Assembly: GCF_004010195.1 (NCBI RefSeq)
Contig: NC_057715.1
Span: 30,018,033 to 30,082,032, forward strand
Source: Chiloscyllium plagiosum
Lineage: Eukaryota
Length of the DNA: 64,000 nt
Direction of reading: 5' to 3'
In this document: positions 1,471-59,156 of the stretch, one piece after another
How positions within the stretch are numbered: position 1 is the first letter of the stretch
Layout of the letters: every line of letters starts with the position of its first letter
The notes under the pieces: model-generated
The model's database searches: none
Seen by the model: only the letters and a program-made list of their open reading frames with translations
Told to the model about the DNA's origin: nothing
Made by a program: the position numbers and the translations under genes

Positions 1471-1562
1471 CATTCCTGAAGAGCTTATGCTCAAAATGTC
1501 GAATTTCCTGCTCCTCGAATGCTGCCTGAATGGCTGTGCTTTTCCAATACCACACTTTTTAC
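1471..1562 (+). mobile_element. PLE terminal repeat with degenerate hammerhead motif
   Basis: ATTCCTGAAGAGCTTATGCTCAAAATGTCGA...TGCTGCCTGA...GTGCTTTTCCA; same repeat as 37068-37189 and 50316-50442; CUGAnGA present, GAAA mutated. Confidence 0.6.
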
Positions 1563-3254
1563 CCTACCCATAGTTATGTTCCTACCCTCCCCCCCCCAAC
1601 CAACTCACATTCATTTACTAACAGTAAAAGGCTATTCAAATGTTTGACGGTTGTTCAGAGTTGAGTGAATGGATGAATTTGAACAGACATAAGGTTAAAA
1701 AAAAAAGGTATGGGGGCAAGGACATCAATCTGACAGTGACTGCTGCTCTCACAAGATTCAGGTTATTTTTGTCAGATGTCATCATCATGGGATTTACCAC
1801 AGCCCTTCACAAACTACTGGTGGATTCTGATAGATCTTTGCCAAAGTACACCCAATTCTATACCTCCTGAAAAGCTAAGAATATCAGCTGAGAGCTTAGT
1901 TCTGCTGTAAGCACCACAGGGATTTGTGATCTTGATTCCTTTACATATATTCTGTCAGATTCAGTCATCTGTTATTTCCTGGTTTTGAATGAAAGTCATA
2001 ATTGACAAGTGAGATCCTAAATTATTTTGTTAAGAATTGTTAACATGTTAACTACCTTCTGCATTCTTAGCCCTGTCAAATCTAACTTACTTCTAATGAC
2101 AGCTACATTTTGTGCAACAATGGAGCGTCACACTTTGTGGCACATTGCAAGATTTAGACTCACTCCAGTCGATTCAAACTTCACTTCATCATTTTTTTCT
2201 TGAAGAATTGTTTCCATTTTTTAAACATTGGCGTTGCTGAGACTGGTATTCTCCTTGGTGACAAGTCTTGGCTTCATAATGCAGCAATATGGGCAGCAAT
2301 ATCATGAACCACTTGGAAAAATAAGCATAAACCTGAGTCCAACCACTACTGGGGTCATCACAATAGTTAAATACTTTGTCAATCACTCAAAGAATTCAGT
2401 TTTACTGTCTGATGGATGCAGGTTAACATAAAATATTGACCAAGTTTCTGTACTTAACATGAGCTACTGCTTATTACAAATAGGTGAATTCTAACTACAG
2501 GCAAACAAAATTATCAATTATCAACAATGCTTTACTGACTGAAAAATTGAACCCCATCCTCAAAAACTTTACAGATATGTACAGACAGAAACAGACAAAC
2601 AAGCCAATGCAGTCATTATGAGCAGAGGAAAAAATACTGAAAAAACACAGTTCAGTAGCACCAATCCATAAGATTCAATGAGGTGTTCCTTTTGGTTCTT
2701 CTAGTTCTTTTTGATCTCAAATTTCCTTACTTCCAGGTGCTTTCAGTTCTTAGCTGAATGGACAGAATGGTTAACTCATTCATTATTCAGTCTTTCAGTC
2801 ACTGCAGAGAGAGAGAGAGAGGAAACAACTTATTGCAAATGGTAGGGGAGATAGCTGTCTTTCAGTTTTAGGTTACTTCACTATCAAGAGAGAAAACAAG
2901 AGATGCTGCAATGGTCTATGCAGCTCTGCACTTGCGAGGCCTAGCTTCAGCCTGCATCACATTGACAAGAGCAACAGAATTCAGGAATGACTGGCTGACA
3001 GGCAGCAGCAGAGTGATAGTAGTAGGAGCTCAAGGGTTTAATTCCATGCTGTACATCTATATAAGTCTATGATCCTATGATAGTGGACAGCAGCTTTGTA
3101 CACTACATAGGCACTGTCCCTGGGAGACACCTTTGCATTTCTAGAAACCTGCAGGAGCAGAAATTGTCAGAGTCTCTGTAAACCTCATCAATCATTGGTA
3201 TCTAGGGATGTGATAACAGCAGTCTGAATCTACAGAACAAGATGGATCTCATAA

Positions 3255-3560
3255 CTAGAGTCTGTTGTCAGACTTGGATTTTGCCCAAACTCTAATGAAA
3301 GCTGTTACACAGCTTATCAGCAGTGCCCTCTTGGAGTTACTCACCACTTCTATGGCTGGAAAGGAAAGACTTGAAGCAAGCATGAAACTATGGTACAAGA
3401 AGCCAGATTCATTCATGTTTCTTGACAGCGACCAGACACTTTCTGGTACATTGCTTGTAATCTCTGAATGCATTTTTACAGCAAAACTCTCTCCAAGCGC
3501 ATCTCCTGGGGGAGCTGGTACATTGTTATTCTCTTCTCCAATCTCGTTGCTATGCACTCA
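3255..3560 (-). mobile_element. Possible decayed distal part of a PIF/Harbinger Myb-like accessory ORF
   Basis: 100-aa ORF (MHSEITSNVPESVWSLSRNMNESG...) resembles, from recall only, the coiled-coil region of shark Harbinger accessory ORFs; no diagnostic motif. Confidence 0.3.
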
Positions 3561-3817
3561 TGCCTGGTTCTTCACCATGTGCTGATCCCAACTCTGCTAA
3601 CCTCAAAAGAACACACCGTTCCAGAATCTGAACTGAATGTCCAGCTTTATTGCAGCTAATTGAAATGTTCTTCGCTTTACTACAGAGAAAGGAGTTAACT
3701 ATTTGGTGAGTGTCTGGTAAGTGGTTATATGTTTGTGATTAAATTAATGAAATATATAAAAACAACATATTTAGTTATTTAATTATAATGTTCAGTTATT
3801 TAATTCAAACTCATTAA

Positions 3818-4260
3818 TCATGGCAGGACAAATGATGTGTTAAAGCTGTAGCAGGTGGGTGCTCCTGGGTACATTGTGATTGAGGGCAAACATGTCTGCA
3901 TTAAGTGTTTGAACTTCCTGCAGTTTTCACTGTGAGTTTATAAGGTGAAGCCTAAATTACACATCTGTGACAAGGAAAGTTACCTGGATTCTTTGCAATA
4001 GGAAGCTGTCATACCGCTTCAGATAGGCTCACCTGATTAAGCCAGTGGTCAGGAGGGTGTTACTGTGAATGAACCCACATAGGCGCCCAGAGGGCAGAAG
4101 TACAGTTGAGGCAGTCTCTGCCCAATAGATTTGAGATTCCCTCAGCCTGATTGAATGATAAAAGGAGCTGCAGGGTAGTTAAGCAAATTCACCATGGCAT
4201 CCTGGTACATGAAGCCATTCAAGTCAGAGGAGTATCAAGGAATGTGGCTTGTTTTTCTGG
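3818..4260 (+). mobile_element. Old CR1 LINE 5' fragment (ORF1 zinc-finger/leucine-zipper region)
   Basis: Translates, with stops and a frameshift, to MAGQMMC*SCSRW...KHVCIKCLNFLQF, the CxxC...CxKC start of CR1 ORF1. Confidence 0.55.
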
Positions 4261-4489
4261 AAATGATGTGTGGTACGATGAGGCTAGAATCTGATGTGAG
4301 AAGCTTGATTTTAAATGTCCATGATGGTCTTCTGCATCCAGCTAGCATTTACTGGAACTGGGTCGCAATTCGGTCCAGTCTGTTTTGTAGTACCTTTTAC
4401 AGCGGTCATCCATAAGGAGAGCTTCCTCCAGCTCAATATTTTCATCCACCTCCTAAAAGACTGCTCCTGTTCCACCGCTCGTCAGAATC

Positions 4490-6299: not shown

Positions 6300-6532
6300 T
6301 AAAACAAAAACAAAAGAACTGCGGATGCTGTAAATCAGAAACAAATGATCCTGGAAAAGCTCAGCAGGTCTGACAGCATCTGTAGACAGTAATCAGAGTT
6401 AATGATTCGGGTCATGTGACCCTTCCTGAGTTCTGAGGAAGGTTTACTCAACCAGAAAAGTTAACTTTGATTTCTCTCCACAGATGCTGCCAGACCTGCT
6501 GAACTTTTCCAGCAATTTCTGTTTTTATTTCA
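6300..6532. mobile_element. Inverted pair of PLE terminal repeats joined at their hammerhead motifs
   Basis: CTGGAAAAGCTCAGCAGGTCTGACAGCATCTGT vs ACAGATGCTGCCAGACCTGCTGAACTTTTCCAG; centre CCTTCCTGAGTTCTGAGGAAGG; + strand HHR-like motif 6429-6466. Confidence 0.75.
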
Positions 6533-7303: not shown

Positions 7304-7321
7304 TAAAAATGATAAAGTTAA

Positions 7322-8101
7322 TAGGTCATTGGCGAGACAAAACATAGACTACGGCAATGGATGAATGGATACCACAGAACAATCTTCAGACAGGAGTGTT
7401 CTCTCCCAGGCGGAGAACACTTCAGTGGTCTGGGACATTCGACCTCTGACCTTTGGGTGACCGTCCTCCAAGGCAGACTTCGGGACAGGCAACAATGAAA
7501 AGTGGCCAAGTAGAGGCTGAAAGCCAAGTTCGTTACCCATGGGGATGGCCTCAACCGGGACCTTGGGTTCATGTCATCCTACCGGTGACCCCATTGCACT
7601 ACACACACACACACACATATAAGTTTGTGGGGTGAATTTATATTTGCAGAATTACATTTTACTTTGCTTAAAAAGTGCATGAATCCATGCAAGGTTCTGT
7701 AAGTCTGTTTTTTTGGATTAGAATCAGTCTGACTACTGTGGCACAGACAGTTAACACCTTCAATACCTTATTTGGGCTGACATGACACCAATTGTTAAAG
7801 TGCACTTGAGAATGTAACTTTTAAAAAAGGCTTTGTGATTTATATATGAAAGAACTGAAACCAACATGGTCATTCTAAAAGATGAGAGACTTAACAAACA
7901 ATCTGGGTCTTTTTCAATATATAATTTCAGTTACATCACACTGTAAACTTTTGCTATAAATTCTGTGTCTTACAGTTTTATTCTCCATAATCACCAAAAG
8001 CTCTGAAAGCTAGTGCTTCCAAATAAACCTGTTGGACTATAACCTGGTGTGTTATTTTTAAACTTTGTACACCCCAGTCCAACACTGGCGTCTCCAAATC
8101 T
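7322..8101 (+). mobile_element. PLE 3' fragment (GIY-YIG C-terminal half, 3' UTR, terminal repeat)
   Basis: IGETKHRLRQWMNG...EHFSG...GLNRDLGFMSSYR*; (CA)n; ends GAAAGCTAGTGCTTCCAAATAAACCTGTTGGACTATAACCTGG (HHR 5' core deleted). Confidence 0.85.
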
Positions 8102-10525: not shown

Positions 10526-10530
10526 TTGTT

Positions 10531-13360: not shown

Positions 13361-13734
13361 AATATGGAAGAGAGAGGTAGGTAGGCTGAACAGATGCAGA
13401 CCATCCAATGCACTAGCTCACACTTCTCCTATCCAAACAGCTGAGGGATAAATATGCTGTTACCTGCCATGGCAACTGCAACATTTGTTCATTTACCTTC
13501 TCCCTTCTCATAGTCTAGGATCAAAAATACATTTTGGCTGAAATAGTATTTATTTTGTAATTTCTCCATATTGCATTCACTGCTCAGGATGTTGTCTTCC
13601 CTCCTAGTCAAACAAAAGTCAGGTGATCACTATCCTAAACTCAGCATGTATTACTCTTGCTTTCTGGGTATTTTGCATTGTCATTCTCTATCCTACTGCG
13701 ACATTGGCCTCCTACATTATTCCAACTTTGCAAA

Positions 13735-15238
13735 AATTAAAAATCACAGAGCACCAGGTGCACCAGAGCACCAGGTCTAACAGGTTTATTTGGAAGCACT
13801 ACCTTATGGAGCACTGCTCCTTCATCAGGTGGTTGTGGAGTATAAGATCATAAGGCACAAAATTTATAGCAAACAATTATAGTATCAGACAGTGATATAT
13901 TGAACAAACCTGGATTTCTAAGTCTTTCATTTTTTTAGAACGCAGGTTTTGGTTCGTTATTACGAAAATCTCAGAACACCTTTTAAGTCATCTTCTCGAG
14001 ATAAGGTATTATAACAAAGATGACATCTCAGTTCAGACAAAGAATTAAAGGTGTGAGGTCAGAGTCTGTCTGTATCCCAATCTTGAGTCACACTGGTTCT
14101 ATTTTCAAAGTGGAATTTACAAACTATTACATAGATTGACTGCCTGCAGATTGTGCATTTTACTTGCAAATATAATTCTGCAAATACAATTCTGCAAATG
14201 TGGGCGGCACGGTGGCACAGTGGTTAGCACTGCTGCCTCACAGTGCCAGAGACCCGGGTTCAATTCCCGCCTCAGGCGACTGACTGTGTGGAGTTTGCAC
14301 GTTCTCCCCGTGTCTGCGTGGGTTTCCTCCGGGTGCTCCGGTTTCCTCCCACAGTCCAAAGATGTGCAGGTCAGGTGAATTGGCCATGCTAAATTGCCCA
14401 TCGTGTTAGGTAAGGGGTAAATGTAGGGGTATGGCTGGGTTACACTTCGGCGGGTCGGTTGGACTTGTTGGGCTGAAGGGCCTGTTTCCACGCTGTAATG
14501 TAATGTAATCTAAACAACTTCACCCCATAGACTTGAATTTGTGTGCGCATGCATGACAGAGAGAGAGAGCAAGAGTGAATATATGCATTTGAGAGTGTGT
14601 ACGCATGAGTGTGAGTGCATATGAGTGTGTGTGTTTGCACGTGTGAAAGCTACACGCAAACACACACTTTCTCACGTGCACTCACATGCACACACTCTCT
14701 CTCATGCACACACACACAAAACATATACAAGTCTATAGGGTGAATTTGTATTTGCAGAATTATATCAGCAGATACATTCTATTTTGCTCAAAAAATGCAC
14801 AATCTGCAGGCAGTCAATCCATGTAATATTTTATAAATTCCACTTTGGAAGTAGAACCAGTCTGACTCAGGATTGGGATACAGACGGACTCTAACCTCAC
14901 ATCTTTAATGCACTGTCTGAACGGAGATGTCATCTTTTGTTAAAATACCTTGTTATTTCGAGAATGTGACTTAAAAGAAGTTTTGCGATTTACATATTAA
15001 TGAACCAAAACCTGCATTCTAAAAGATGAAAGGCTTAACAATCCAGGTTTGTTCAATATATCACTGTATGACACTGTAAGCGTTTGTTATAAATTGTGTT
15101 GTATGATCCTATACTCCACAACCACCTGATAAAATAGCAGCCCTCTGAAAGCTAGTGCTTCCAAATAAACCTGTTGGACTATAACCTGGTGTTGTGAGAT
15201 TTTTAAGTTTTTCCAACTCAGTTCAAGCACCAGCTCCT
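13735..15238. mobile_element. About 1.5 kb foldback of two inverted PLE 3' UTR/terminal repeats with HHR motifs near both outer ends
   Basis: Left arm (minus, 13735-14640, split by HE1) is the reverse complement of the right arm (14650-15238), e.g. GAGGTCAGAGTCTGTCTGTATCCCAATC vs GATTGGGATACAGACGGACTCTAACCTC; HHR motifs 13797-13831(-) and 15123-15157(+); inserted in an older PLE C-terminus (IGLLHYSN | LEKQHFIF). Confidence 0.8.
14202..14512 (+). mobile_element. HE1-type SINE, CpG-rich young copy
   Basis: Well-preserved head, A/B boxes, V-domain and tail; CpGs retained. Confidence 0.95.
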
Positions 15239-16674
15239 TAAAAACCTTGAGAAACAGCACTTCATCTTCCTACAAGGCATTTTACAGCTTTCTAAAGATC
15301 CACTAGTACTGTGGAAAATTTATAGCATTGCAGTGACAACTTGAAGTCTTAACCACCATTCTCAACTTCTGTGAAGCAGGGGCCAGTAACAGTAATCAGT
15401 TAACTTAGAATAAGTAATGGTTAGTATTTGGGATTCTTTGCACTCCTGGTGTCAATAAGCCTGTCTCTTCTGATATACCTGGGCAATGAAATCTTTTCCT
15501 TCCGGCTTTATTCAAAATAGTTCACGTAGTTCACTATGTTAGAAGAACTATTTTATATTGTTCATATCAATTGAAGAGAAGTAGACTTAAAGAATGGTGG
15601 GCAGCTCATTATTACGAGTGTTCAATTACATTGTGCCTTGAAAAGCTATGACTTTGACTCATACCTACACATCTCACACTCTAAACTCTGATGAAATATT
15701 TCTCCGATTCTATGCTCCTGACAGAACTCTCATCTGCTGAACCATGTTTTGAAACCTAGTGATAAGTAATGGAACATTTCTAACCATTTACAGGATACAA
15801 TTTCCCATCCATTTCAAATATGTGCATGAATTTCTAATATGAGTCCCCAGTGGCTAAGGCTTAAAAAAGGAAAAAAAAATCTCAAATCTCAGCCACAATG
15901 TCAATGGGAACCAGCAGATAGAGTCAAGGGACTTCTTCACAATGAGAAAAAGAGAATCAAAAGAAACATCATCCCATTATACACACATGCAGCACTTATG
16001 GGCAGCCAGCCGGCACCATAGTGGCATTGATAAGAGTACAATTTTGCAGAGGACCCTGTAATCAGTTGCATCCCACTTGGCAGTGCAGAATGGATTTTCC
16101 AGCTGGTGGGATCAGTCCCCCCGGAGTGGAATATACTTGAGATGGCCAAGAAATGCAGCAGGGAATACCTTTTGTCAGATCCATGCCTGATTATTGCAAC
16201 ATGCACAGAATGTGCAAGAGCTTCATTTTGAAATGATAATGGATGCTAAGAGGTCCCAGCATGCATTCCCATCCGCTAAGGAAAGGATCACACTGTGCTC
16301 TTGCTGCTAATTCATCTGGCAAAAAAGGGGAAGCCCCATGTGCAAAAAACAAGCTCTTAAAGAGACAGGGGCCATTATTTTGAATGTTTTATTAATTAGT
16401 TTCTCAATATCATTTTAGCGTGAGTGTTTCTGTATACTTTTCTTTGGCTTAATTTTTAATGGCACCAGCAGAGGAAGGAATCTTTATGTAGAAATGAAAC
16501 AGCTAAATATTGTCTGTATGTTCACTGGAAAGCCATTTGTAAACAGACACAATTGCAAGTTCTCAACAAACAAGGAAAGAGGGAATTCCTATATAAATTT
16601 CCATAACAGCTCAGAGAGCATCAAGGTATCTAGCAAAAAGGTAAGTGTCTGATGATAATTAACAAACCATATTT

Positions 16675-17022: not shown

Positions 17023-17164
17023 ATTAAACCATATGATGGGGAGTGCTTTTTAACTGACCCAGATGCAGTGTGTAATATTGGAAGCTAAAAAGAAGAATCA
17101 GACCTGTATCTAAAGGACAACAACATCAATGACAGTCAATTTAAGAATCACTATCAACAATATC

Positions 17165-17265
17165 GAGAATACTGGAGAAATTCATCAGATCTGGCAGAAT
17201 CTGTGTACAGAGAAACAGAGTTAACCTTTTTTAGTTAGTATGACTCTTCTTTATGTTCAGAGCTC
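17165..17265 (-). mobile_element. Degenerate PLE terminal repeat
   Basis: CTGGAGAAATTCATCAGATCTGGCAGAATCTGT...AGAGTTAAC, same family as 6300-6532. Confidence 0.5.
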
Positions 17266-27932: not shown

Positions 27933-27933
27933 A

Positions 27934-31660: not shown

Positions 31661-34282
31661 ATAGGGATCTCACCAAAACCTACGTGAGTCAACACAGTGT
31701 CAACTCTCTACTCATGTACCTGTAATTTGGAATGCCTGCCAATGACATGAAAAGCTACAGCTCTATTATCCAGTTTGATTAGGTTAGGGGTTGGAGAAGA
31801 TAAGAGAGAGAGAGAGAGAGGTGCTCATGTTCATCAGCACCTGCTATTGCACTCATTAAAATAAACTACTTCAGGTTTCCACAATTTTGATTATTTTCAT
31901 AAGCAGGCAGTGAGCAGTTTGAATAGAAACAGTTTGGACGTTTCATGAAATCTGTACATTTGTCAAAGATTTCATCATTGATTCTCCAATCGAATTTGTC
32001 TTTTAATAATTGGTTCATGCCTCAGGGTTTAAAGAGAACAATTGCTATCACAAAAATAGTGTAATACACGTGAAATACCCCTCAAATGCTCATAGCACAC
32101 AGGCTGGACTAGCACAACTTGAAATCCCGATCTGTGTAACCTTCTGTGGAATATATCAAATATTGCACAGGGGAATGGGATGGTTTCTTTTCGCTTGTAA
32201 AGCATAAATTAATATATCATTGTGCTTACTGTCTTGGTGTGTCATAGTTCCTACATGACAATGAAAGAACAAAAGCAGTATCCTACTGTCGGTATCATAG
32301 TTCCTAGTCATTACGTTAAACAAGCTGTCTGAATTGGAAAGGCTTTACTGCACTGTTTCTTGAGACAGATTTCACGGTGTTATATGACTTTCTCAAAGAA
32401 ACGAAGAACCTAACAGCATATGGTAGTGAGCAGTCTCCAGATTTCACAATACATGTGTTCCAGCTGGTCCCCGTTTTCAAGGCTATGAACCAGGGAATGT
32501 CACATCTCTCCTATCTCCTGCCTCTGGCAGGTGTTTTCTGGGTGCCTGACTACTAAGTACATTGTAATTAGCATGCCCTTGAGCGATGGCTGTCATCTTA
32601 CATCTGTAACTTGCACAAGGGCACTGTTAACATCTCTATATTCATTTCTCTAATGTCCCGGACTTCGTTTTTACTGTAGTGCTGTCTGCAGCATCAGTAT
32701 TTGATGGATGTAGCTTGAAGCAGCTTCTAAACTGTATCACATAATGCTGGCTGTTCCCACTTTCATCTTCGAGAGGAGATATTGCTTGCTGCCACGATTC
32801 ATCACCATTCCCACACATCAGATTGATGTTTTAAATAAAATAGTGCCATCAAAATGAAAAAGAATTCTGGTTCAAATGGGAAGGAGCCATTATGCTTCCT
32901 TCTGAACTTGCCTTAATACTTATTTATGCATTATACTACAATTTTCTGTAGATGAGTCACAGAGAGAGGCAAGAAGAGGCACTCTCTTGCCCGAATATTA
33001 ATGTTGATAAATGTCAGTGAGATTGTCTCACTTCTGCTCACCTCTGTCTCAAGCTTTTAGTAAGAACTTACATTGCAATATTTTGCACAAAGAGAAATTC
33101 ATCTATCATACATCTTTTAGAAAAATGTGTGCTTTAAATGTTTCTTCCCTGCTCTTGCTAGATAGATCAGTATTAGATAACAAAACCATACTGATGTGAC
33201 TATCAATAATTTTAGAATTCTCCGGAAAGAATAATTTTTTAAAAAACTTCAAGTTGATGAAAAAAAAGTCTTTCAAGGGGAGACTTTGAATTAAGTCACT
33301 GTAATGCATAATTTCCACTCCACCTTTCAAAGCCACAATATAATTTGTTTCACTTTATTTAAAAAAATTAATCCCATCCATTGATGTTCCCTTTGCCAAA
33401 TGCTTGCAGTTTATAGGCAGGTAGCACTAATAATATTTTACTAAGAAGTAACTTCAAACCAAGGGACTAAGAGAGAAACTAGCCAAATGCTGACGTTAGG
33501 AAATCTGAAACAAATTCTGGAAGTACTCAGCCCTATCTTTATTTTCCCTTCCGTAATGTAATGTTGCATTACATCAATTCCAAATGTAATTGTATATTTC
33601 ATTTCCGGTTTAGACTCTATGCAGCTTTACCCCAACTCATTGGGCAGAATTTAATGAATTGGGAATTGATTCACATCCACCTTGGCAAATGGCCATTCCA
33701 CCCCTGAACTCACCTCCAGGTTTGTGGGGGGGGGAATAAAATTTCTGTCTGTTGAATGGGGAACGTAAATTGAATGACGGACTGATTTTTCACCTTGAAG
33801 AAATAAGCTTCAAAACGCACAGTATCTAATTTGTTATATTATAGGTTAAAAAAAATCAGATTGGTTAAAAAAATTGTACGAACTGATCCCCAGGTGGCCT
33901 TCTCAATGAATTCAGTTACTGTTACCCCCTTAGTTGTCTCAGGGTTCAGCAAACTGATTGGATAAGGAAACACATCATTGTTTGCCATGTTCACACAGAG
34001 CCCAGCTTCTTAGTGAAGGCTGTTGCAAAGGTTCAACTTTAATAACTGCAAATCACAGCAGAAAATCCCACAGAAGACTAATTAAGTATAAACGTAATGA
34101 ATGATGAGCAACATTCATTTCACAACTGATTGCAAAATCCAGTACAGTGTGAAGCTTTTTTTTAGTCAGTCAGTTCACAATTACTAGTTAGCCATTTGGC
34201 CAAATGCTACAATCAAAACTGCACAGTTTAAAAGGTTACAATACTGAAAAGATGTAACTATTGCAGACACTACAGACAGACC

Positions 34283-34350
34283 TGCTGCGCTTTTCCAGCC
34301 ACACATTTTTCAGCTCTGATCTCCAGCATCTGCAGTCCTCACTTTCTCCT
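34283..34350 (+). mobile_element. 68-bp PLE terminal fragment with 15-bp TSD
   Basis: TSD CACTACAGACAGACC at 34268-34282 and 34351-34365; insert matches the reverse complement of part of 37068-37140. Confidence 0.8.
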
Positions 34351-36997: not shown

Positions 36998-37067
36998 AAT
37001 ATTGACTTCCACAACTTCAGAGTATGACCTATATATTCCCCTACCCTTCTCAGGTCACATCTTGTTT

Positions 37068-37189
37068 CTGGGAGAAAGTGAGGACTGCAGATGCTAGAGA
37101 TCAGAGCCGAAAAATGTGTTGCTGGAAAAGCGCAGCAGGTCAGGTAGCATCCAAGGAGCAGGAGAATCAACGTTTCGGGCATAATCCCT
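37068..37189 (-). mobile_element. Mini PLE terminal repeat truncated inside the HHR core, 8-bp TSD
   Basis: TSD TCTTGTTT at 37060-37067 and 37190-37197; minus strand GAAGGGATTATGCCCGAAACGTTGA. Confidence 0.8.
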
Positions 37190-38883
37190 TCTTGTTTATG
37201 TCTTGTTGGATTTGTTCTCAGTAGTGTGAACCATTTTCTCCTCTTTATAGCTAATATTTACACCTATTTTACATCTCTACTGACTCCTTTACCGCCATTA
37301 TTACTATCTTTGTCTTTTTCTCTAGGCAAAGATCACCACCTCTTTCACTTGTTCCTCCTCCCCCACAGTCCCACGCATAAAGACCATAATTTTCCAGCTC
37401 CATTCAGTTCTGAAGAATTATACTAGATTTGAAATGTTAACTCTGTTTCTATCCACAGACGTGCTGAGTTTCTCCAATCCTTTGTTCTTTCAAAATTTCA
37501 GCATCTGCAGTAATTTGCTTTTATTATCCCTTCAGGGTTAAGTATATTTCAATCAAATATCCTGAAACTCTTCTAAACTGCAGTGGATACAAGCCTAGCT
37601 CATCTAATCTTTCCTCATAAAACAACCCACCCATTCTTGGTATTAGTCTGGCAACTGAACTGTTTCCAAGATATTTACATCCTTCCTTGGCAGCCATGAT
37701 GGGGTCTGCCATATCCTTACGGAATGCAAGTGGCAGACCATTGGATGGTCAACAGTCTTGTGGCACAGAGCCGTGCCCTAATGGCCAACGAGAAGGTACT
37801 GCATTTGGCCTGACATTATAACTGCGATTGCCAAATATATGACCCCCAGATAAAACATCATGGCTAATTGGATTGGCCCAAACAGCAGTACAATTACATG
37901 TAGCAGATTCTTTGGTTTGGTTATGTGTTTTGTGAAAACCACCATAGTCCCTTAACAAGCTCTTTAAACAATTTAGCAGGCTGTTAATCAGAGGCAATTG
38001 AGTTCCAAACCATACCTTCACACCCTACAAACATCACCCTGAAAGTAGCAACATGTTCAAGGAGCAATTAGTCTCACTTTCACAAGCAAATGAAAATCAT
38101 GTCCAATGATGAAAAGCTTATCACCAAAGCATTGCTTTAGCAGGTACCGATGGAAATGTGGTTTAAGATTTGAACAGTAGCCAAACTACAATTATGTAGC
38201 ATTAGTATGACCAATCATTCTGCTTTCCAAATTCACTGCCTGACTATGCTACGAATTGTAAACAAATACAGAAATTGCTGGAAAAACTCAGCAGGTCTGA
38301 CAGCATCTGTGGAGAGATAGCAGCATTAACATTTTAGGTCCAGTGACCCTTCTTCAGAACTGATGGTGCCTAGGAAGAAGATGCTTTTTATGTAGAAGAT
38401 GTGATGGGGGAGGAGTAAACAGTGAAAATAGAGACGAAAGAGCAAGAAACACAGTTGAACAGATAAAGGAGTGGTTAAAGGTCAGCCAAGGGGAATGAGT
38501 AATGGGAAGCAGTAGTGTTGACAATGAATTGTGTGTGGTAGCAGCCCATGTGATGACAAAGACTGGTGTGTGAGGTTGGGGTAGGGACATGGGAAGAGAT
38601 CCTCAGCCCTAAAACTGTTGAACTTGATATTGAATCCTGAGAGCTGCAGGGAAATCGAGCGGAAAATGAAGTTCTTTTCTTCCAACTTGTGCTGAGCTTT
38701 GCTGGATCACTACAGCAAGCCTGAGACAGAGATGTTAAACAGAGTGGTGCAACTGGAAGCTCAGGGTCTTTTTTGTGGACAGAACATAAGTATTCTGTAA
38801 AGCAGTTACCAAATGTGCATTTCATTACCACATTGTAGAGGAGAACACATTGTGAGGAGCTTATGCAGTAGACTAGATTGAAC

Positions 38884-40357: not shown

Positions 40358-40436
40358 AATTGCTGGAAAAGCTCAGCAGCATCTGTGGAGAGAAATCAGA
40401 GTTAATGTTTCAGGTCCAGTGAACCTTCCTCAGAAG
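40358..40436 (-). mobile_element. 79-bp HHR-headed mini PLE insert with 7-bp TSD inside the PLE ORF
   Basis: TSD CAATGGG at 40351-40357 and 40437-40443; RNA UU-CUGAGGA-AGGUUCACUGGACCU-GAAA-CAUU-AACU. Confidence 0.8.
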
Positions 40437-41329
40437 CAATGGGTCTGCCTAGGCAATCATGTTTCTAGAGTGTGGAGAGACGATAAAAGCGAGCTGTGCG
40501 CGGTTGGGAGACTATGAGATTGGAGGCAGTAGGGGAAGAGGGAAGAGCACCAGATAAAATGTGATTCGTGACCATGGTGGATATGATGTTCCAGGTGGGG
40601 TCACGGTCCAGGAAGGCGGAGATAACTGAGAGCCGACGTTCAGCCTCTGCAATTTAGAAGTCAACACACCAGAGAACAACAGCACCACCCTTGTCGGCAG
40701 GCTTAATTACAAAGTCAGAGTTGGATCTTAGAGCACGGAGAGCAGTCAGTACAAAGGGAGTTAGGTTGGAATGGAAGCGGGGGTGGGCAGAGAAATTGAG
40801 GCAAACAGTCTCACATCAACAGCTTTTGATTAACAGGTTGAGTGCAAGTAAAAGGCTGGAGGGAGGGGTCCAGGTGAGGAGGGGTGTTGGAGCTAGGCAA
40901 AAGGGTCTGTGGGAGAGGACTCTTATTCAAAAAAATGGTGACAGAGGTGAAGGCGATGGAAATAAAGTTCAACATTGTGGCGCGCCCAAACTTCATTAAG
41001 GTATGGAAGCATAGGGACAAAACTGTTTTCTCTCCACAGATGCTGTCAGACCTGTTGAGTTTTTCCAGCAATTTTTGTTTTTGTTTCTGATTTCCAGCAT
41101 CCGCAGTTCTTTCAGGTTTTTTGATTGATGAATTGTTTAAGTGTTGAGGAAACCTTTTAAAATCCTACTGAAATTAATCCTCAGCTGCTCAGGTCTATGC
41201 AGTGTAAAGATTGAGTTGACATTTTTCTTACTTTAGTTTTTAGCTTTCTAGCTTTTAATAGATTTGCTCACAATTTGCTTACTATAGATTCTGAACAGCT
41301 GAGGAGCTCCTGGGATTGCTGCTGTTTCT

Positions 41330-41840: not shown

Positions 41841-41844
41841 GCAG

Positions 41845-47741: not shown

Positions 47742-50720
47742 TGATGTGGAGATGCCAAAGTTGGACAGGGGCGGACAAGGTCAAAAGTTAAATGACACCA
47801 GGTTATAGTCCAAAAGGTTTATTTGAAATTGCAAGCTTTTGGAGCTCCACACACCTTCCTCAGGCTAGGGATGATAGAGACACAGTATTTAAAAGCAAAA
47901 AAATTAACAACTTTAAAACTAGCTGCCCTTGTTGAATCCTTTAATCAGTTAGGAGGTAGACTACTGATTAAAATGCAAAATCCAGATTCCTTTCGAGTCT
48001 TTGTCCCTAGATAATTAAACGTTTTATCATTGTTCAAGAAGTGATATCTCAGATTAGACAATGCACATTAAGTGTGAGGTCCCTCTTCGAATCTGTCTGT
48101 GCTTTAAGCTGAGGTTGGGTTTTATTTTTGTGAAAAGAATCTTAACTGAAATAATTCTGTGCGTGTGCGCGTGCATGTGTGCAGTGAGAGAGAGAGTGTG
48201 AGTGAGTGAGAGAAACTGAGTGTGTGTATGTGCATTTGGCAGAGTCTGAGTGTGACTGCTTGTGTGCATATGTCAGTGTGAGTATGCTTCTATGGGACAA
48301 CCCCTACACATATACAGGAACTGTTCAGATGAGGGGGAATGTGACAGTCACCTGAAGATGTTGAAGGTTGCATTCATAATAACAGAATATGAAGCTCAGC
48401 TCATCAATTGCAAATTTCATTGTGCCACAGTGAAAAACCATAGTGACCTCCTCAGATGACAGACACAGGATATAGCTCCCTTTGTCATCCAGCATTACTC
48501 AGGAACAGAGAATCTATGCCATGTTCTTCACATCCTTCAACACATCATTGACGATGATGGACACCATGCCATGATCTTACCTACTTCTCCACTTCTCACC
48601 TTCAAACAACCACTGAACCTTAAACAGACCATTGCTCGCAGCAAACTGCCCAGCCTTCAAGACGACATAGACCACAGCACCACACAATCCTGCCATGGAA
48701 CCCTCTGCAGGACATGTCAGATCATCGACATGGATACTATCACACGTGGGAAAACCACCCATCACATACACGGCAGATACTGATGTGGCTCGGCCAATGT
48801 CATCTATCTTAAATGATGCAGGCATGGATGCCCTGAGGCATGGAACATTGGCGAGACCATGCAGATACTACAACAATGGATGAAGAAACACCACACAATG
48901 ATCAAAACAGAACAGGCTCCCTCCCAATAGAGGAACATGTCGGCTGTCCAGGACATGCAGCCTCCGATCTTTGGGTGAGCATCATCCAAGGCAGACTTCG
49001 AGATATGCAACAATGCAAAATCACCGAACAGAGGCTGATAGCTAAGGTCCATACCCATGAGGACGGTCTCAACCATGATCTTGGCTTCACACTACTGGTA
49101 ACTCCACCATACTACATACTCCCACATACAGATTCACATATTCAAACTTGCACACATACACAGCCCCTCTCCCACACACAAACACTCACACATGTACACT
49201 CATATATACACACACTCTCACTCTCAAATGCACACACATACACGCTCAAACTCTCTCAAATATACATACACACACACTCTCTCTCTCTCAAACACATGCC
49301 CTCTCTCAATCACACACACACACACACATTATTTCATTCAAGGTTCTTTTCTGTCAAAATATAACACACACATATTCAAGATTTTTTCTGTCACAAAGGT
49401 AAAATATGAGGACCGTGATGGGCACCTGGAAGTACTCAAGGTTGCTCTCATAAGAACAGGGTACAATTCTCAACTCACTGACCGCTAGTTCTGACGTGCC
49501 ACAATGAGAAACTATAAATGACCTCCTCAGGAGACAGACACGAGTTGCAACTGACAGGGTACCCTTCATTGTCCAGTACTTCCCAAGAGCTGTAAAACTA
49601 CGCCATGTTCTTCGCAGCCTGCAACACATTATCAATGAGGATGAGCACCTCGCCTCCACTTCTCACCTTTAAACAACCACCAAATCTCAAACAGATTATT
49701 GTTCGCACCAAACTGCCCGGCTTCCAGGACAACACCATACAACCCTATCATGGCAGACGCTACAAGACGTGTCAGAATGTTGACATGAATACCACCATTA
49801 CACGTGGGGACACCTCCCACCATTTGCGTGGCATATACTCATGTGACTCGGTCAATGTTGTCTATCTCATACGCTGCAGGCAAGGATGCCCTGAGGCATG
49901 ATACATTGACGAGACCAAGCAGAGGCCATGGCAATGGATGAATGGACACCAAGCAACAATTAACAGATGGGAGTGTTCTCACCCAGTCAGGGAACACTTC
50001 AGCGGTCCAGGACATTCAACCTCAGATCTTCAGGTGACCATTCTCCCAGGCGGTCTTCGGGACAGGCAACAATGCAAAGTGGCCAAGCAAAGGCTGATAG
50101 CCAAGTTCAGTACCATGAGGATGGCCTCAACCAGGACCTTGGGCTCATGTCACACTACAGGTGACCCCATTGCACTAGACACTCCTACACTCACACACTC
50201 CTTCACATACACTTCTCTCTCTCTCTCACACACACCTCTCTCTCTCTATCTAACACCTCTCTCTCTCTCTCTCTCCGTCTAACACCTCAGCTTAAAACAC
50301 AAACAAATTCAAAGCCAGAGAAAGTGAGGACTGCAGATGCCGGAGATCAGACTCAAGAGTGTGGTGCTGGAAAAGCACTGCAGCTCAGGCAGCATCTGAG
50401 GAGTAGGAGAGTCGAAGTTTCTGCGAAAAGCCCTTCATCGGGAATTCAAAGCTGGACCTCATTCCTGAAATGCATTGTCTAATCTGAGATAGATCTTTAA
50501 AACCTTTAATTATCAAGGGATAAAGACTTGAAAGAAATCTGGATATTACATTTTAATTAGCAGTCTACCTCCTAAATGATTAAAAGATTCAACATGGACA
50601 GCTTGTTTTAAAGTTGTCAACATTTTACCTCTCTATCATACCACGCCTTTGGAAGGAGTGGAGCTTGCAATTTCAAATAAACCTGTTGGACTATAACCTA
50701 GTATCATTTGACTTTTTATC
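47742..50720. mobile_element. PLE array: inverted 3' end (47742-48290 minus) plus two tandem partial ORF copies (48295-49370 and 49400-50720 plus)
   Basis: PLLTFKQPLNLKQ / PLLTFKQPPNLKQ; CHGTLCRTCQ linker; NVVYLIRCRQGCPEA*YIDETK GIY-YIG; terminal TTCAAATAAACC..TTGGACTATAACC at both outer ends. Confidence 0.88.
50316..50442 (-). mobile_element. HHR-headed mini PLE insert with 10-bp TSD
   Basis: TSD AATTCAAAGC at 50306-50315 and 50443-50452; minus strand CCGATGA-AGGGCTTTTCGCA-GAAACTTC. Confidence 0.8.
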
Positions 50721-51039
50721 TTATTTCTGGATGAGGGTGAATCCAAGTGACTGCACTAAATCTTGTACCTTGGGGGCATGGATGGAGGCATTACTGAAAG
50801 CATAGATACCTAGGAGAAACTGAAAGCGAATGCTTAATAACCAAGAAGGGCAAAGATGTGGGGGACTGGGGGGTGGGGTTGCATGCAGTGTGATTCAGCT
50901 AGGTCCCACACCTCATAGGGACTGCCCTGACATGGATAGGTTATTCTTACCAAGAATCAGTCCTTGTAGAGATAAAGTTTCTTCTTCATATTGAAGATCC
51001 CCTCCATCTTCCAGTTTGTCACTCAGGACAATCTACCAC

Positions 51040-52010: not shown

Positions 52011-54270
52011 AACCGATAATACACAATTCTGAGAACATCAGAAAGAAAGTCTTGCTCTCCTAAGTGCACAATCCGTTACTTATATTTCTTAACGTTTCAG
52101 GACATACATAGAATTGCCACATTTGCACAACATGGCTGATCATCCTGGGGCAAAAATCAAGTGGATTGTACAACAGGCAGGAAATCAGCTTTACCCAAGT
52201 ACCATCCAGACAGTGTAAGTATAGTTTGGAGATGTGATTGAAACAACAACAAACAGAAGATATAGATAGAATAGAGTGGGAACAAGGATCAGGGCTGCTT
52301 CTTGCATGGAGAATAAATACCAACATGATGTTGTGGGATGAATGGCCAGTTTCTACTCTAAAGTCAATGTAATTGTCTACATTTTTGTTCTTAAAACCGA
52401 AAGATGGTAATTGCTTACATTTACTTTTATTGCCAGTCCATTTTTTCCTAAGATGGGTACAGTACACTTTACATTTAGTGTCGTCCAAACCTGGTATACT
52501 AGTATTAGCTTCTGCATGTATGCATGGTATGAATATTATGATGCAAACAAAATGCATTAAATTACTCATATGACCTGCAAAAGGTCATCACACAGTTGTG
52601 ACATTTTCAGCTTATCACTGTATCGCAATTTGCCTACTGTAGTAGAATTAGTTCTTTGTAGTGTACTAGATCTCACTTGGACTTTATAAAACAAACATCT
52701 ATGCCACAAAATCATTACCCTAAATGTAGCCACAATCTGTCCAGCACAGATCTGTTTTCCTGCATATTGCATTTCATAGTGATGCACTGTATTGATCAGA
52801 CTTTTCCAGGAAATAGATTAAGTGTCTTTTTACAGACAAAAACAAAAAAAAGAGATAAGAGTAAGAAACAGTATACAGAATGTGAGAAACCTAGAGGAGA
52901 AAGGGAACAGGCAGAAATAAGGAGGAAGACAGAGAATAGAGAATAAGGGCAAAAGAAATGCAATGATATTAAGAAATCTATATTCTTTTATCTGTATAGA
53001 ATAAAACAATGTGGTAGATTGCATGTCACTTATCATATCAATATCAATGATTGAATATATTCAGTTGTGATCCTCAAAACACCATTAAAGGTCAGTGAAA
53101 TGTGAAATCTTAGATTTTTCTGTTCTGATGTGCAGCCAGAAATATCACAGTCACTGAGCTCATATTTACAGTAATTTGCACTGGTAGATTTTGTATTTCA
53201 TTGCTGCGTTTTGTGCTGATTAGTTTTGTGTGGGGCCTCTGGATGTTGTACCTAAAAATAAGTTACATATCCAAAGTTAGTTGACATTCACACAAACGTG
53301 ATGCACTCCTATTAAGTTGATCAATAAAAATGTACAATTTAGTTTGCGTTATCTGTAGCATAATGCCTACGTTCTATAGCTTTTAAAGAATTGATGCCCA
53401 ATCCTATCAATATTGTGCATCAATGTCAATTGCCAGATAAAAGACTAAAAGATGCGCAGATGCCCGAAAGAATCTGCTGAGTCTCCATTTGTTGGCCACT
53501 GGAATGAATAGCCCATCATGATTAAAGGGTTTTTGAGGACCGTTCGTTTGGAATTTGGAAGACATAATCTGTAAAATCAGGCACCATGCCAGTGACTCCA
53601 TTCCTAGCACCCCTGTGATTTTACTAGAGACCCCCACCCATCCACTGTGATTTGACTTGTAGCAGAGGAGGCATTTGTTAATGCACTCATGTGCAGTTCC
53701 CGTGAAGACTTTCTCACTCAATGCTGTGCCTTAACTTGCAGAGGAGGGGGCTGATACAAAATCTGCAGCTTGCCACATGAAACCTGATGGACTGGTGGCC
53801 AGACAAAGCTAGTATCCTTTCCTTTTTGTGCCCCTTGTTCAACAACACCACCAAATGAGTTAGCCTCCTAAATTGTTTTCCCATTCACAGTCTACCCTTA
53901 ACCCCGCTCCTCTCAAACCCCCTCAATGGAAGTCCCAGCAGTGGCCAACACTTGCATTGGCTGTTGAGACCAGAGTTCCCAGTGATTTATTTGGCTGGCA
54001 CTTGTGAGGTGGGCCTTCCTCCCTGATAAGAGTGGAAAGTCTTCCTGTCGTTAATGAATAGTCCAACAGCCATTCACCGACTGGGAAATGAATTAACCAA
54101 GCAAGAGCAACCTACCTCCATCTTTTAAACAACTGGATGGAGACTTCCTTTCAGCATAAAATGCAGCCCTTCTGATATCCTGGAGGTATTAAAGCAGTAT
54201 TAAATGAAAAACAGGATTATTTATGTGTGAGGTAAATTTTGGGGAAATCACAGCATTGCCTAATTGCTGA

Positions 54271-54452
54271 GTTAAAAATCGCACAATACCAGGTTATAGT
54301 CCAATAGGTTTAATTGGAAGCACTAGCTTGTGAAGATGGTTGTGATGAAGGAGCAGTGCTCTGAAAGCTAGTGCTTCCAATTGGAATATAACCTGGTGTT
54401 GTGTGATTCTTAACTTTGTACACCCCAGTCCAGCTCTGGCATCTCCAAATCA
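54271..54452. mobile_element. Mini PLE insert with inverted 5' part and 14-bp TSD
   Basis: TSD TGCC(T/G)AATTGCTGA at 54257-54270 and 54453-54466; 54271-54329 is inverted relative to about 54365-54415; HHR-like GTGATGA-AGGAGCAGTGCTCT-GAAAGCTA-GTG. Confidence 0.8.
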
Positions 54453-55880
54453 TGCCGAATTGCTGAACAGTCACACCAGACTTGAAATGTTAACTTTATT
54501 TCTCCCACCTCAGAAGCTGCCAGACTTGCTGAATTTCTCCAGCACTTTCAGATTCTAAATGGCGTAACTAGGTCCAAGAGGTGGTGTCAGATCTCCAAGT
54601 AGCACCAAGCATATTGGACATTCTGAAAATTGTCAGCCAGTTGTTGGCAAAGTATGATTTAGCTCTAAAGTAGCAGCTTCTCTATTTCAGTCATGCTCTT
54701 TTCATATAATTATTTGAAAGTGCTTGTGGCAAGAAACTTTGAAATATCATAGTGAAAAAGTGATAGGCCACCATCTTTGAAATATAAAGTCCCTTCTGCA
54801 AAGTCAGAGTTAGTGGGCTTTTTCAACAGGATCTGAGCAGGGCAGGATGTACTCCCAGGTTGGTAGCATAGATATGAATTCCAGCCGCAGGGGCACTCTT
54901 TTATAACCAATTAGCCACATTACTCAACGGTTCTAAGTTTGGATCATTCGGTTTTCCATTAAACAAGCAAAATGGACTGAATTTTCGCAACGTCAGGCAA
55001 AGTGTATTATTGAGCCAAATTCTTGACACCTTGTCCGCCATAGGTCATGCGACTTTTCCCACATAATCTTTCACTTTTTACTTCACCTAGAACTAGAATC
55101 TATGGTGCATATCTTGTGGAATTGCACTTGTGAAACTGCTGGGATCTTCCATCATTATGCCATCAGAGCCATATTTGAACTCCAGCTGTGCACTACTTCA
55201 AATACTGTAAGCCAAGAACTGACATTCACACAGTGGTGCTGGAGTGCTACAGTCAGGATGTGGCCCAGAAAAGGGAAGTTAGCTCCTTGGTTCACCTACA
55301 ATAACCTCGAGGTGGTGGATGGTTTGGTGCAGAGGAGGGCAGTGATGCATCTGGCTGACCAAAGGAGGCCACACCACCAGCCAGCCTGCACTGAGACAGT
55401 AGCAGAGAAGTGTCCTGAGTAGAACACAATGCATAGCAGTGCAGGAAAATGATCAATGACCTTCAGTGCTCTGCTTGATGGTGGGTAATGCTTCTCTCGC
55501 TTGCCTCACATTCACTAATTCTGTAATTGCACATGCCTCTCATTGACATTCAGGGAGTGAAAGAGAATTCAGGGAACTAAAGACCAGTTAGCCTTCCACC
55601 AGTAGTAGAGAATTTAATAGAGTCTATTGTAAAAGATGGGATAAATAGACACCGGGTTGATAACAATCTGATTGGGTATACTCAGCGTGCATTAATGAAA
55701 GGCAAATTGTGTTTGCTGAACTTGAAGTTTGTTGACGATGTTACTAACAAAATTGATAAAGGAAAGCTGAGGGATATAGTGTACTTAGATTTCTAAAAGG
55801 TTTGTAATAAAAACCTCCTCTGAAGCTTGGTTAGGAAAATTAAAGTACATGGCATTGGAGGAAAAAAAAACTGACATGGA

Positions 55881-56979: not shown

Positions 56980-57509
56980 ATGTTGGTTAACAGACAGAAA
57001 ACGGGGAGGAGGAACAATTGGGTAATTCTCTCACTGATAGACGGTGACTAGACGGGTACCAAAGGATTCATACTTCGGCCCCAGCAGTTCATAATGAATC
57101 TCAATGACTCGAATTGGGCCGAAAGTAATATTTCCAAATTTGTTGATGATGCAATGTGAAGTGGAAATTTATGTTGTGAGGAAGATGTAAAATGGTCTTT
57201 GAATAACTTGGACAGGTTTAGTGGATATTTTGGACAGGCTTAGTGAATGGGCAAGAACATGGCAGATAATGTGGAAAAATGTGAGGTTATCTACTTTAGT
57301 GGGAGGAATAGATGTGCAGAAGATTTCTCAAATGGTAAGTGGTTGGAAAGTATACTTGTACTCAATACTCTGTATTAATGTCAGTACATCATTGAAGGCT
57401 AACCTGCAAGTGCAGCAAGCTATTAGGGAGGTTGATAGAATATTAGCCTTTATTGCAATAGCATTTGAGTACAGGAATAGTGAAGTCTTGCTTCAATTAC
57501 ACCATGCCA

Positions 57510-57828
57510 AAGGCAGCATGGTGGCTCAGTGGTTAGCACTGCTGCCTCACAGCGCCAGTGACCCAGGTTCGATACCCACCTTGGGCAACTGTCTGTGTTG
57601 AGTTTGCACATTCTCCCAGTGTCTGCATGAGTTGCTTTCAGGCGCTCAGGTTTGCTCCCACAGTCGAAAGATGTGCAGGTCAGGAGAATTGGCTACGCTA
57701 AATTGCCAATAGAGTTAGATGCATTAGTCAGAGGGAAATGGGTCTGGGCAGGTTATTCTTTGGAGGGCTGGTGTGGACTTGTTGGGCCAAATGGCCTGTT
57801 TCCACACAATAGGGATTCTAATCTAATC
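57510..57828 (+). mobile_element. HE1-type SINE
   Basis: Head, B box GGTTCGATACC, V-domain and tail. Confidence 0.9.
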
Positions 57829-58378
57829 AATTGTATGCAAATTTGGTTAGACCACAGAATATTGCATGCAGTTTTGCTCTCCTTATCTCAGGAAAAATAT
57901 TATTGCCAAAAAAGGACTGAAATGAAGTTTCACCAGACTCATTCCCAGGATGGCAGGACTGTTCGATGAAGAAAAATTGAGCAAACTTAGCCTGGACTCT
58001 CTTGAGTGTTGAATAGCAAGATGAATTTCCCATTCACAAATCTATGCTGACTATACCCAATCAGATTATTATCAACCAGTTGTATACTTATCCCATGCTT
58101 TATGATAGATTCTAGCAATTTCCTGACTACTGAAAGAAGACTAAAGAGTCTGTAGTTCCCTGTTTTACTGAAACATAGAATTTAAACAAGTTAGATATAA
58201 ATAAGATAGCTCCTTTCACTGGGGAGTCTAGAACCAGGGGGCACAAATTAAAAACAAGAAGGATACCACTTAAGTTCAATATGAGGAGAAATATTTTTAC
58301 TCTAGAGGTTGAAAGCCTTGTGAATTGTCTACACAGAGGGTTGTGGAAGGTCAGTCTTTGAGTATGCCAAAGATAAAC

Positions 58379-58413
58379 CACCTGATGAAGGAGCGTCGCT
58401 CTGAAAGCTAATG
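58379..58413 (+). ncRNA. Minimal type I hammerhead ribozyme motif heading a ~90-bp PLE repeat (58377-58468)
   Basis: CAC-CUGAUGA-A-GGAGC GUC GCUCU-GAAA-GCUA-AUG: intact core, 5-bp helix II, palindromic AGCU helix III, CUA cleavage triplet; one mismatch in helix I. Confidence 0.7.
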
Positions 58414-59156
58414 CTTCCAAATAAATCTGTTGGACTATAACCTGGTGTTATGATTTTTAACTTTGTACAGCCTAATACAAAGGTTGATAGATTTCTGATT
58501 ACTAGTAAAACATAGGATTAAAGGGATGGGGCAAACAAAAGACACTGAAGTCTTTGATCAGTCATGATTGCATTAAATGACTGGGAAGGCTCAATGACCT
58601 GAATGGCCATTCCTGTTTCTGAATTCCAGTGTAGCAAGTTTGATTTTTCATTCTCATTGTATTTCCCATCTCTTTCACCATTGTTCATGCCCCTGAAGGG
58701 AGTGGAAAATTCTGCCCCATAAATTGTATTTAGTTGAGACTGTGGTACTGCTATATGGAAAGTCAGCAGGATCTAGGCAGCATAGCTTACCTGTTTATGA
58801 AGGAGTTGAAATGGCTTGATAAGACATGACAAAAAAGCAATATGAAGAATGAAATACAATGGTGGACTTGTCTCTAATCTAGGACATTGATTTACGACAT
58901 TATGAAGACAAACCCAACTGAATTGACCCTCATGCGTCTATTTCACTAATAAGTGTCACTGATTCAAAGGTTGAGAAATCTATTCAATGTTTACAACCCA
59001 ACAGCCACATTCATAACATTACACCTATCAGCCAATGTGCCACATTCCTCCATCACTCTCACTAAACGTTCCCCAACTCTCTGACAGAACAAACCCACCA
59101 AAGTGGATAGACAGTGTTATCCATAAAATATGACACGTTGACTTCAAACTTCATGA

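Follow-up and report, generated by a model that had tools for sequence, protein, structure and literature searches.

Short Penelope-like inserts in the shark Chiloscyllium plagiosum share a front edge a few bases ahead of their hammerhead motif

Why should a great many short inserts of a retroelement begin at nearly the same place, just ahead of a ribozyme? The question is raised by a 64,000-nt stretch of the Chiloscyllium plagiosum genome (the window; RefSeq assembly GCF_004010195.1, 3.56 Gb, contig NC_057715.1, positions 30,018,033 to 30,082,032, forward strand). In it an earlier note, made from the letters alone, recognized small inserts of Penelope-like elements (PLEs), several with target-site duplications (TSDs), whose 5' boundaries lie within a few nucleotides of a minimal hammerhead core. 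The note considered either an independently mobilized mini-element or an arrest of reverse transcriptase (RT) at the ribozyme fold. We find that the inserts are real and very abundant PLE stubs with front edges 4-8 bases before the hammerhead. The observation itself held for the most part, in its motifs, its TSDs and the genome-wide clustering of edges, with exceptions among the individual copies cited. In our view the stubs are probably cDNA copies of just the 5' untranslated leader of a capped PLE mRNA, made by an RT that starts internally near the AUG and runs off at the capped end.

The repeats are, judged by their coding and terminal sequences, the ends of several autonomous endonuclease-bearing (EN+) PLE families, which we term A, B, C and D. 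At locus L033, family C encodes an RT domain (Pfam RVT_1, E = 1.3e-8) with a YIDD motif and a CX4CxxC linker. Its GIY-YIG-like C-terminal end was recognized by motif, and a Pfam search gave no GIY-YIG hit in the family C protein. This endonuclease end lies 490-960 nt upstream of the hammerhead in the family C loci checked, and families A, B and D extend upstream into endonuclease-like coding sequence as judged by translation only. A CX2-5CxxC linker between RT and endonuclease, found in C (L033) and A (L143), belongs to the Neptune/Nematis motif definition of PMC8557442. The pseudo-long terminal repeat (pLTR) recurs at the 5' end and runs into the open reading frame (ORF) in L285, the tail is one-sided, and an inverted arm is present, also on the long copies L032, L037, L038 and L040; these are marks of an EN+ PLE. 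Family D is a fourth hammerhead-bearing family (L096, L075, L160, L176 and others) with TATAAA at -47 to -53, where all relative positions are counted from hammerhead C3 as 0. An apparent 1158-residue open frame at L031 is in fact an assembly gap. Upstream of 6472 in L066 (minus strand), the family A GIY-YIG coding region contains a three-fold tandem duplication of about 66 nt, which suggests repeated template slippage or jumping.

A scan of the window for the pattern CUGANGA..GAAA, together with inspection of the cited sites, bears out the claim that at least three PLE repeat families carry a minimal hammerhead with a palindromic helix III. The cores (arrows at the cleavage site) are CUGA(A/U)GA-A-GGGC..GCCC-GAAA-CG-UC↓G in family A, with the helix III palindrome ACGU; CUGAGGA-A-GGGUC..GACCC-GAAA-CG-UU↓A in family B, with AACGUU; and CUGAUGA-A-GGAGC..GCUCC-GAAA-GC-UA↓G in family C, with AGCU/AAGCUU. 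Each shows the elements of a minimal type I hammerhead (CUGANGA, GAAA-UH, helices I and II and the palindromic helix III). Helix II is retained with differing sequences between families and, within A, as GGGC/GCCC and GAGC/GCUC; six family C copies that were compared contain no compensatory change. The folds are weak, at about -8 to -10 kcal/mol. An Rfam scan of the window returned no hammerhead and only repeat-driven microRNA (miRNA) hits. The cleavage site is kept in the copies, as had been claimed.

The position of the 5' edges was surveyed in 150 arbitrary 10-kb stretches taken from chromosome arms (L041-L190; 1.5 Mb, of which 45 kb are N). The edge of every sampled copy was placed by mapping onto natural long copies, hits adjoining region edges or N gaps were excluded before counting (A 20, B 0, C 1, D 5), and copies exceeding the reference length were censored at -300. 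The core is intact in 96 of 170 A, 12 of 58 B and 36 of 68 C copies that reach C3. Edges at -10 to +9 account for 143 of 270 copies in A, 50 of 102 in B and 39 of 94 in C, compared with three of 36 in D; tested singly against D, the first three families all show a significant difference in this clustering (p = 5e-11, 1e-9 and 1e-5 for A, B and C). Expressed as a breakpoint hazard, in percent per nucleotide, the values for -10 to -1 against -100 to -21 are 8.3 and 0.30 in A, 10.8 and 0.33 in B, 5.1 and 0.65 in C, and 0.6 and 0.32 in D; the edge hazard is 8-37 times background in A, B and C. When uniform truncations were simulated, six of 87 were miscalled into the edge zone in A, none of 71 in C and 11 of 66 in B. 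This excludes an artefact of the caller for A and C and leaves family B as the least secure. Breaks at the cleavage site are not enriched in the sample (three, none and none observed against 3.5, 2.2 and 1.2 expected in A, B and C). The median edge is at -4 in A, -3 in B and -8 in C (A versus C, p = 4.5e-6). The edges are thus clustered genome-wide rather than spread evenly, and on this point, that the truncation is not random, the note was right. Extrapolation gives approximately 350,000 short A copies, 120,000 B and 95,000 C in the genome.

The long copies indicate what lies at this edge. The initiator consensus is BBCA+1BW, and the usual distance from a TATA box to the start of transcription is about 31 nt. 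An initiator A in this context occurs at -4 in 36 of 49 long A copies and at -8 in 35 of 44 long C copies. Upstream of it stands a box, TTTATCT at -35 in A (25 of 49) and TATAAA at -40/-38 in C (30 of 44), while the eight long B copies have an A/T-rich box near -35 and TCAGTT with its A at -4. The spacing from TATA-like box to initiator is approximately 30-32 nt in all three families. Judged by these motifs, the 5' edge appears to track a predicted promoter and not the hammerhead fold. Transcription starts inside the pLTR have been described for PLEs of Drosophila virilis and Chlamydomonas (PMC2377424, PMC8557442), and TATA and initiator-like motifs were noted in the pLTR of rotifer Pen2a (PMC3846280). 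We note that the TTTATCT that holds the TATA position of family A is conserved across subfamilies and is a GATA site on the opposite strand.

The other end of the stubs is clarified by L285, a family C copy found by targeted search. It contains TATAAA at -38, the initiator at -8, the hammerhead, a tail to +119 and an ATG at +121, followed by about 100 codons with one stop. Since the ATG of the ORF directly follows the tail in this copy, the stub corresponds to the 5' untranslated region (UTR) of the element and both of the common 3' ends are internal to the RNA. Sequence shared 3' of the tail in the 1.5-Mb sample consisted of flank matches only, with no ORF junction, and matching DNA contigs fall approximately 100-fold just past the L285 ATG, a figure that is not a copy number. 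In RNA run X21, a terminal poly(A) begins at +57 in 275 reads and at +60 in 323, 15-20 nt past the A(A/T)TAAA of family C, although these come from a single sample and may represent host transcripts that end in inserted copies. Families A and B lack an AATAAA signal. A(A/T)TAAA followed by a GU-rich tract is seen at 960-1000 of L285 (+40 to +80 in family C) and at 15164 of the window; the approximately 200,000 family C copies obtained by extrapolation could supply poly(A) sites to host transcripts.

Many copies are arms of head-to-head pairs (139 of 270 in A, 26 of 102 in B, 54 of 94 in C and six of 36 in D), and these pairs are asymmetric: one arm is tailed and the other tail-less in 54 of 69 A, 12 of 13 B and 25 of 27 C pairs. 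The asymmetry fits an RT that starts at two internal sites and a process in which both strands are extended, as described in PMC11167929. Exact TSDs of at least 8 bp flank 25 of 69 A and ten of 27 C pairs, and seven of 51 A, three of 35 B and none of ten C solo stubs, with 0-1 in controls; as few solo stubs have exact TSDs, the edges of most of them were placed by alignment. Pairs could also arise by the snap-back synthesis known from R2 (PMC11371274) or by self-priming on an antisense template, to which rotifer palindromes have been attributed (PMC3846280), but neither readily explains the fixed tail-less end.

A further signature is found directly at the edge. Exact patterns were matched against the whole genome and the base preceding each possible edge was tallied by eye in 100 listed matches per pattern; the initiator patterns required a non-template base ahead of the initiator A. 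Among the matches listed, this base was G60/A26/T14 in family A (6477 matches in all), G68/A9/T23 in family C (3971) and G39/A25/T36 in family B (746), while control edges one base away gave G20/A19/C61, G18/T37/C45 and G18/A20/T62. The G:A ratio one base upstream was 20:19 and 18:20, against 60:26 (A) and 68:9 (C) at the initiator, again among the matches listed. On the same listed matches, binomial comparison with the genomic G/(G+A) of 0.415 gave 1e-7 for A, 1e-17 for C and 1e-3 for B, with 0.14 and 0.28 for controls. Transitions would yield T and not G, because the template base before the initiator is C. In L209, L217, L195 and L184, and in both arms of L088, the G is not templated by either arm. 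An extra G at full-length L1 5' junctions has been read as cap copying (PMC11702581). We infer from the pattern that a C at the end of the cDNA selects a G for microhomology joining.

Taken step by step, the leader-copy reading runs as follows. The wall of edges and its family-specific offset, which are direct observations, would reflect initiation by RNA polymerase II at the initiator A, 4 nt (A and B) or 8 nt (C) before C3, driven by the TATA-like box about 31 nt upstream, and the uncleaved hammerhead would be the first structure of the RNA. After a nick in the target, RT would be primed internally at the tail end or approximately 37-45 nt upstream of it, a step suggested by work on a PLE of Anolis and by the two fixed 3' ends seen in the inserts; the ATG beyond the tail was observed in one copy and the poly(A) site in one sample. 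The enzyme would then copy about 85-130 nt to the capped end, often adding a C opposite the cap, which is how we would read the observed excess of G. A solo stub would form when this cDNA is joined by microhomology to the target. The observed asymmetry of the pairs would follow from twin priming, the cDNA being joined to a second one primed on the other nicked strand to give one tailed and one tail-less arm. Long copies may derive from a read-through tandem transcript, or from a jump from the 5' end of the RNA to the repeat at its 3' end. In the edge pattern the ribozyme is most likely a passenger whose cleavage leaves no mark.

Several observations weigh against this reading. The ATG junction is present in one of six loci that hold the N-terminal part of the ORF, and in family C only. 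The edge is not confined to a single base: whole-genome breaks in family A number 6571 at -3 and 6477 at -4, there is a shoulder at 0 to +9, and some edges extend to -5 to -14. The promoter motifs are resemblances, the family A box is non-canonical, and no start peak was seen in RNA run X21, a poly(A) single-cell library and the sole set of RNA reads examined. Family D, although it possesses both a TATA box and a hammerhead, shows no pile-up of edges (three of 36) and few pairs, which the model does not account for. The extra G raises its own difficulties. Solo A stubs carry the G in the downstream TSD copy as well in seven of eight G events, so that there it is target-derived; a G borne by the TSD would need to be selected by annealing to the C of the cDNA, and a target preference may be the alternative. 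In solo stubs alone the excess is not significant (8/17 versus 4/18, p = 0.16). In pairs, the G could be read from the opposite arm in about half of approximately 50 listed rows by eye, and a subfamily variant (A90/G4/T6 among the matches listed) made the upstream control of family A at -13 uninformative.

Four other explanations were considered. The arrest of RT envisaged by the note, in which the enzyme, while copying longer RNAs, halts or dissociates at the hammerhead fold or at protein bound there, would explain why three unrelated families all have their edge no more than 10 nt from the core and why a shoulder at 0 to +9 reaches inside the fold, and a PLE protein is reported to assist hammerhead folding (PMC11167929). 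However, a stall is expected 3' of the fold and the peak is on its far, 5' side. The peaks of A and C also differ by 4 nt, in step with the initiator, family D has the hammerhead and no peak, the folds are weak and an extra G is not predicted, and we regard arrest as highly improbable. The RNA end might instead be real but produced by processing, as the start of a spliced exon, by nuclease trimming or by a non-canonical cut. In D. virilis the 5' edge of helix I coincides with the end of an intron (PMC4209133), and an edge wall several bases wide would suit such an origin. Against this, there is no conserved AG before -4 or -8, the 30-32-nt spacing from TATA-like box to initiator recurs in A, B and C, and the G excess points to a cap; processing therefore seems improbable. 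Much the same standing is given to a boundary set on the DNA, whether the endonuclease cuts the pLTR of its own element or the target shares microhomology with the edge motif. The family A edge reads ATT, the motif preferred by the Anolis enzyme, for which this preference and cutting of the element's own junction have been shown (PMC11167929), and in solo stubs the TSD often extends over the first 2-5 bases. The edges of C and B, however, read ACA/ACT and AGT, an ATT at about +29 in A has no peak, and untemplated Gs occur at pair junctions.

The independently mobilized, hammerhead-headed mini-element of the note, retrozyme-like and spread by a rolling circle, is the least probable of the four and is largely refuted. 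The very high number of short copies is what such an element would leave, and retrozyme monomers derived from pLTRs have been described (bioRxiv 10.64898/2026.07.22.740005). A family A tree (91 core rows, 78 columns; poorly resolved, with many open forks) nonetheless contains no clade of short copies only, with 16 label changes against a shuffled mean of 16.9. Four sets of identical rows mix short and long copies, as do 11 of 12 listed haplotypes, and the ends vary (tailed or tail-less, pair or solo), where a lineage of its own would have fixed ends. Only nine same-strand neighbours lie less than 400 nt apart in the 1.5 Mb, with no regular multimer. Direct repeats of the first 30-45 nt or so number just 297 genome-wide and have scattered joints; the joint is exactly at the cleavage site in one of 100 listed and reaches it through a 5-nt microhomology in eight of 100, which is no enrichment of jumps at that site. 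One array of four or five head-to-tail units of about 35-40 nt, each with a family A hammerhead core, at G000:C7:77962992-77963146, was the sole retrozyme-like tandem seen.

Within the window, a profile search called 21 copies. The main features are as follows.

1455..1558, plus strand: family A stub starting about 20 nt before C3 (1476); core damaged, tail absent, TSD not found
6306..6436, minus strand: family B inverted arm with tail; 5' edge about -6
6429..6532, plus strand: family B direct arm, tail-less; edge -4 after a G, intact core 6433; head-to-head with 6306..6436
7327..8100, plus strand: long family C copy with GIY-YIG end (7327-7590), (CA)n, 3' UTR, deleted hammerhead and tail
13733..14199, minus strand: long family C copy, inverted partner of 14705..15243
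14705..15243, plus strand: long family C copy with pLTR anatomy; TATAAAT 15088 (-38), initiator-like TCCA+1CA at -8, C3 15126, AATAAA 15164, tail
17146..17251, minus strand: old family B stub; 5' edge about +3
34279..34350, plus strand: family A stub truncated 3' of the hammerhead (+55); 16-bp TSD
37071..37193, minus strand: family A stub with tail; 5' edge +3 to +7 (overlaps TSD); TSD 37060/37190
37201..37523, plus strand: longer family B copy (-208); core 37410, TATA-like box near -35, TCAGTT initiator
38227..38640, minus strand: long family B copy extending into endonuclease-like coding sequence
40358..40436, minus strand: family B stub; 5' edge -3 to +2 (overlaps TSD), intact core 40433; TSD 40345/40431
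41023..41120, plus strand: family B stub starting at +33
47743..47864, minus strand: old family C stub with tail; 5' edge -1
50316..50445, minus strand: family A stub with tail; edge at initiator A (-4); TSD 50305/50442; inserted in a family C copy
50662..50722, plus strand: end of the interrupted family C copy
54270..54332, minus strand: family C inverted arm, tail-less
54343..54451, plus strand: family C direct arm with tail; 5' edge +1; pair flanked by TSD 54257/54453
54465..54554, plus strand: old family B stub; 5' edge about +5
58376..58480, plus strand: family C stub; 5' edge -6, intact core 58382; TSD not found

By alignment, nine of the 21 copies have their edge at -10 to +9, in keeping with the boundaries reported near the core, or ten if the copy at 40433 is bounded by its TSD instead of the -17 of the aligner; the copy placed at 1471 reaches approximately 1455 (about -20). 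The four cited TSDs exist, with one mismatch each, at 37060/37190 (11 bp), 40345/40431 (13 bp), 50305/50442 (11 bp) and 54257/54453 (14 bp). The inserts at 6429 and 54342 do not stand alone but are arms of head-to-head pairs. The hammerhead core is also less complete at the cited boundaries than had been supposed: GAAA is mutated at 1471, C3-G5 are missing at 37193 and C3 at 54343, and U4 is changed at 50441. PLE stubs often lie inside or beside other PLE copies (50316-50445 in 50444-50722, 54465-54554 by 54343-54451, and 37071-37193 by 37201), and a preference for PLE or repeat targets is possible. The inverted pair of long family C copies at 13733-15243 is separated by approximately 550 nt containing a repeat that resembles a short interspersed element (SINE) and, in addition, a (CA)n palindrome. 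A near-perfect palindrome of about 130 bp with T/A runs at 45195-45326 resembles a miniature inverted-repeat transposable element (MITE), and the Rfam matches there are spurious miRNA only.

Compared with known systems, the shark families resemble the Neptune/Nematis-type EN+ PLEs (PMC8557442, PMC3846280), in the RT with a C-terminal GIY-YIG-like region and the linker in A and C, as well as in 5' truncation, a head-to-head inverted arm, a tail of 35-45 nt on one arm and TSDs of 8-17 bp. They differ in that about half of the copies stop at one position, the predicted start site, with a cap-like G, and, unlike the rotifer self-priming account (PMC3846280), the shark pairs fit two sense-templated cDNAs. 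For Poseidon of Anolis carolinensis, internal RT initiation, extension of both strands and the use of uncleaved RNA as substrate have been reported (PMC11167929). The shark inserts similarly point to two internal starts bounding the tail, 3' of an uncleaved hammerhead, with neither reads nor ends at the cleavage site. In Poseidon, however, stem II of the hammerhead contains the beginning of the ORF and RT starts within the ORF, 111-118 nt from that beginning, whereas the family C ATG follows the tail; the main text of that paper does not treat 5' edges, start site or cap. The hammerheads resemble those of other metazoan PLEs (PMC4209133) in their type I core, the unpaired base before stem II and the palindromic helix III, and in being mostly solo with some opposite-strand pairs, but the circular-RNA and self-cleavage model given there has left no trace in the shark junctions. 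As in the non-LTR retrozymes of bioRxiv 10.64898/2026.07.22.740005, the stubs are short, non-coding, dispersed monomers that derive from a pLTR and bear a hammerhead; unlike them, they show no tandem units with a hammerhead per repeat in the sample and no lineage of their own, and their ends are start site and tail. The elements, minimal hammerheads, solo stubs, opposite-strand pairs and tails have already been described (PMC4209133, PMC8557442 and the bioRxiv preprint). A search of the open literature, with key subscription papers outside its scope, returned no account of PLE 5' edges at a start site with a cap G.

Retroviral minus-strand strong-stop DNA is primed near the 5' end of the RNA, and the first cDNA is a short one that covers R-U5. 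The order is similar in family C, with a predicted promoter upstream, a poly(A) site inside and a putative priming site downstream. We tentatively raise the possibility, which we hold to be rather less than even, that the PLE pLTR works like retroviral U3-R-U5: TATA upstream, a capped start just ahead of the hammerhead, a poly(A) site that in family C follows after about 60 nt, and internal priming at the AUG. A target-primed strong-stop cDNA would then start every transposition and would have to jump to the 3' repeat of the RNA, and stubs and hairpin pairs would be failed jumps. The likeness has limits, as strand transfer is hypothetical and A and B lack AATAAA. Unlike the retroviral case, PLEs are target-primed rather than tRNA-primed, no integrase is involved, and the short cDNA is joined to the chromosome from the outset and becomes fixed.

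The pattern bears on the PLE transposition cycle, for which in vitro proof of internal RT initiation dates only from 2024 and which has yet to account for the inverted arm, the tail or what the hammerhead does. Junctions numbering in the hundreds of thousands in this genome suggest that the template is a capped leader with its hammerhead uncleaved and that priming is twinned, and they yield exact positions (-4, -8, +57/+60 and +121). If the comparison with U3-R-U5 is true, it would supply the missing step in the regeneration of PLE ends without a poly(A) tail, and the roughly half-million stubs and pairs would be a genome-wide fossil record of the cap analysis of gene expression (CAGE) kind. 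Among the 'solo hammerheads' and 'retrozyme monomers' tallied in animal genomes, many may have arisen as side products of autonomous PLEs and not as ribozyme-driven elements.

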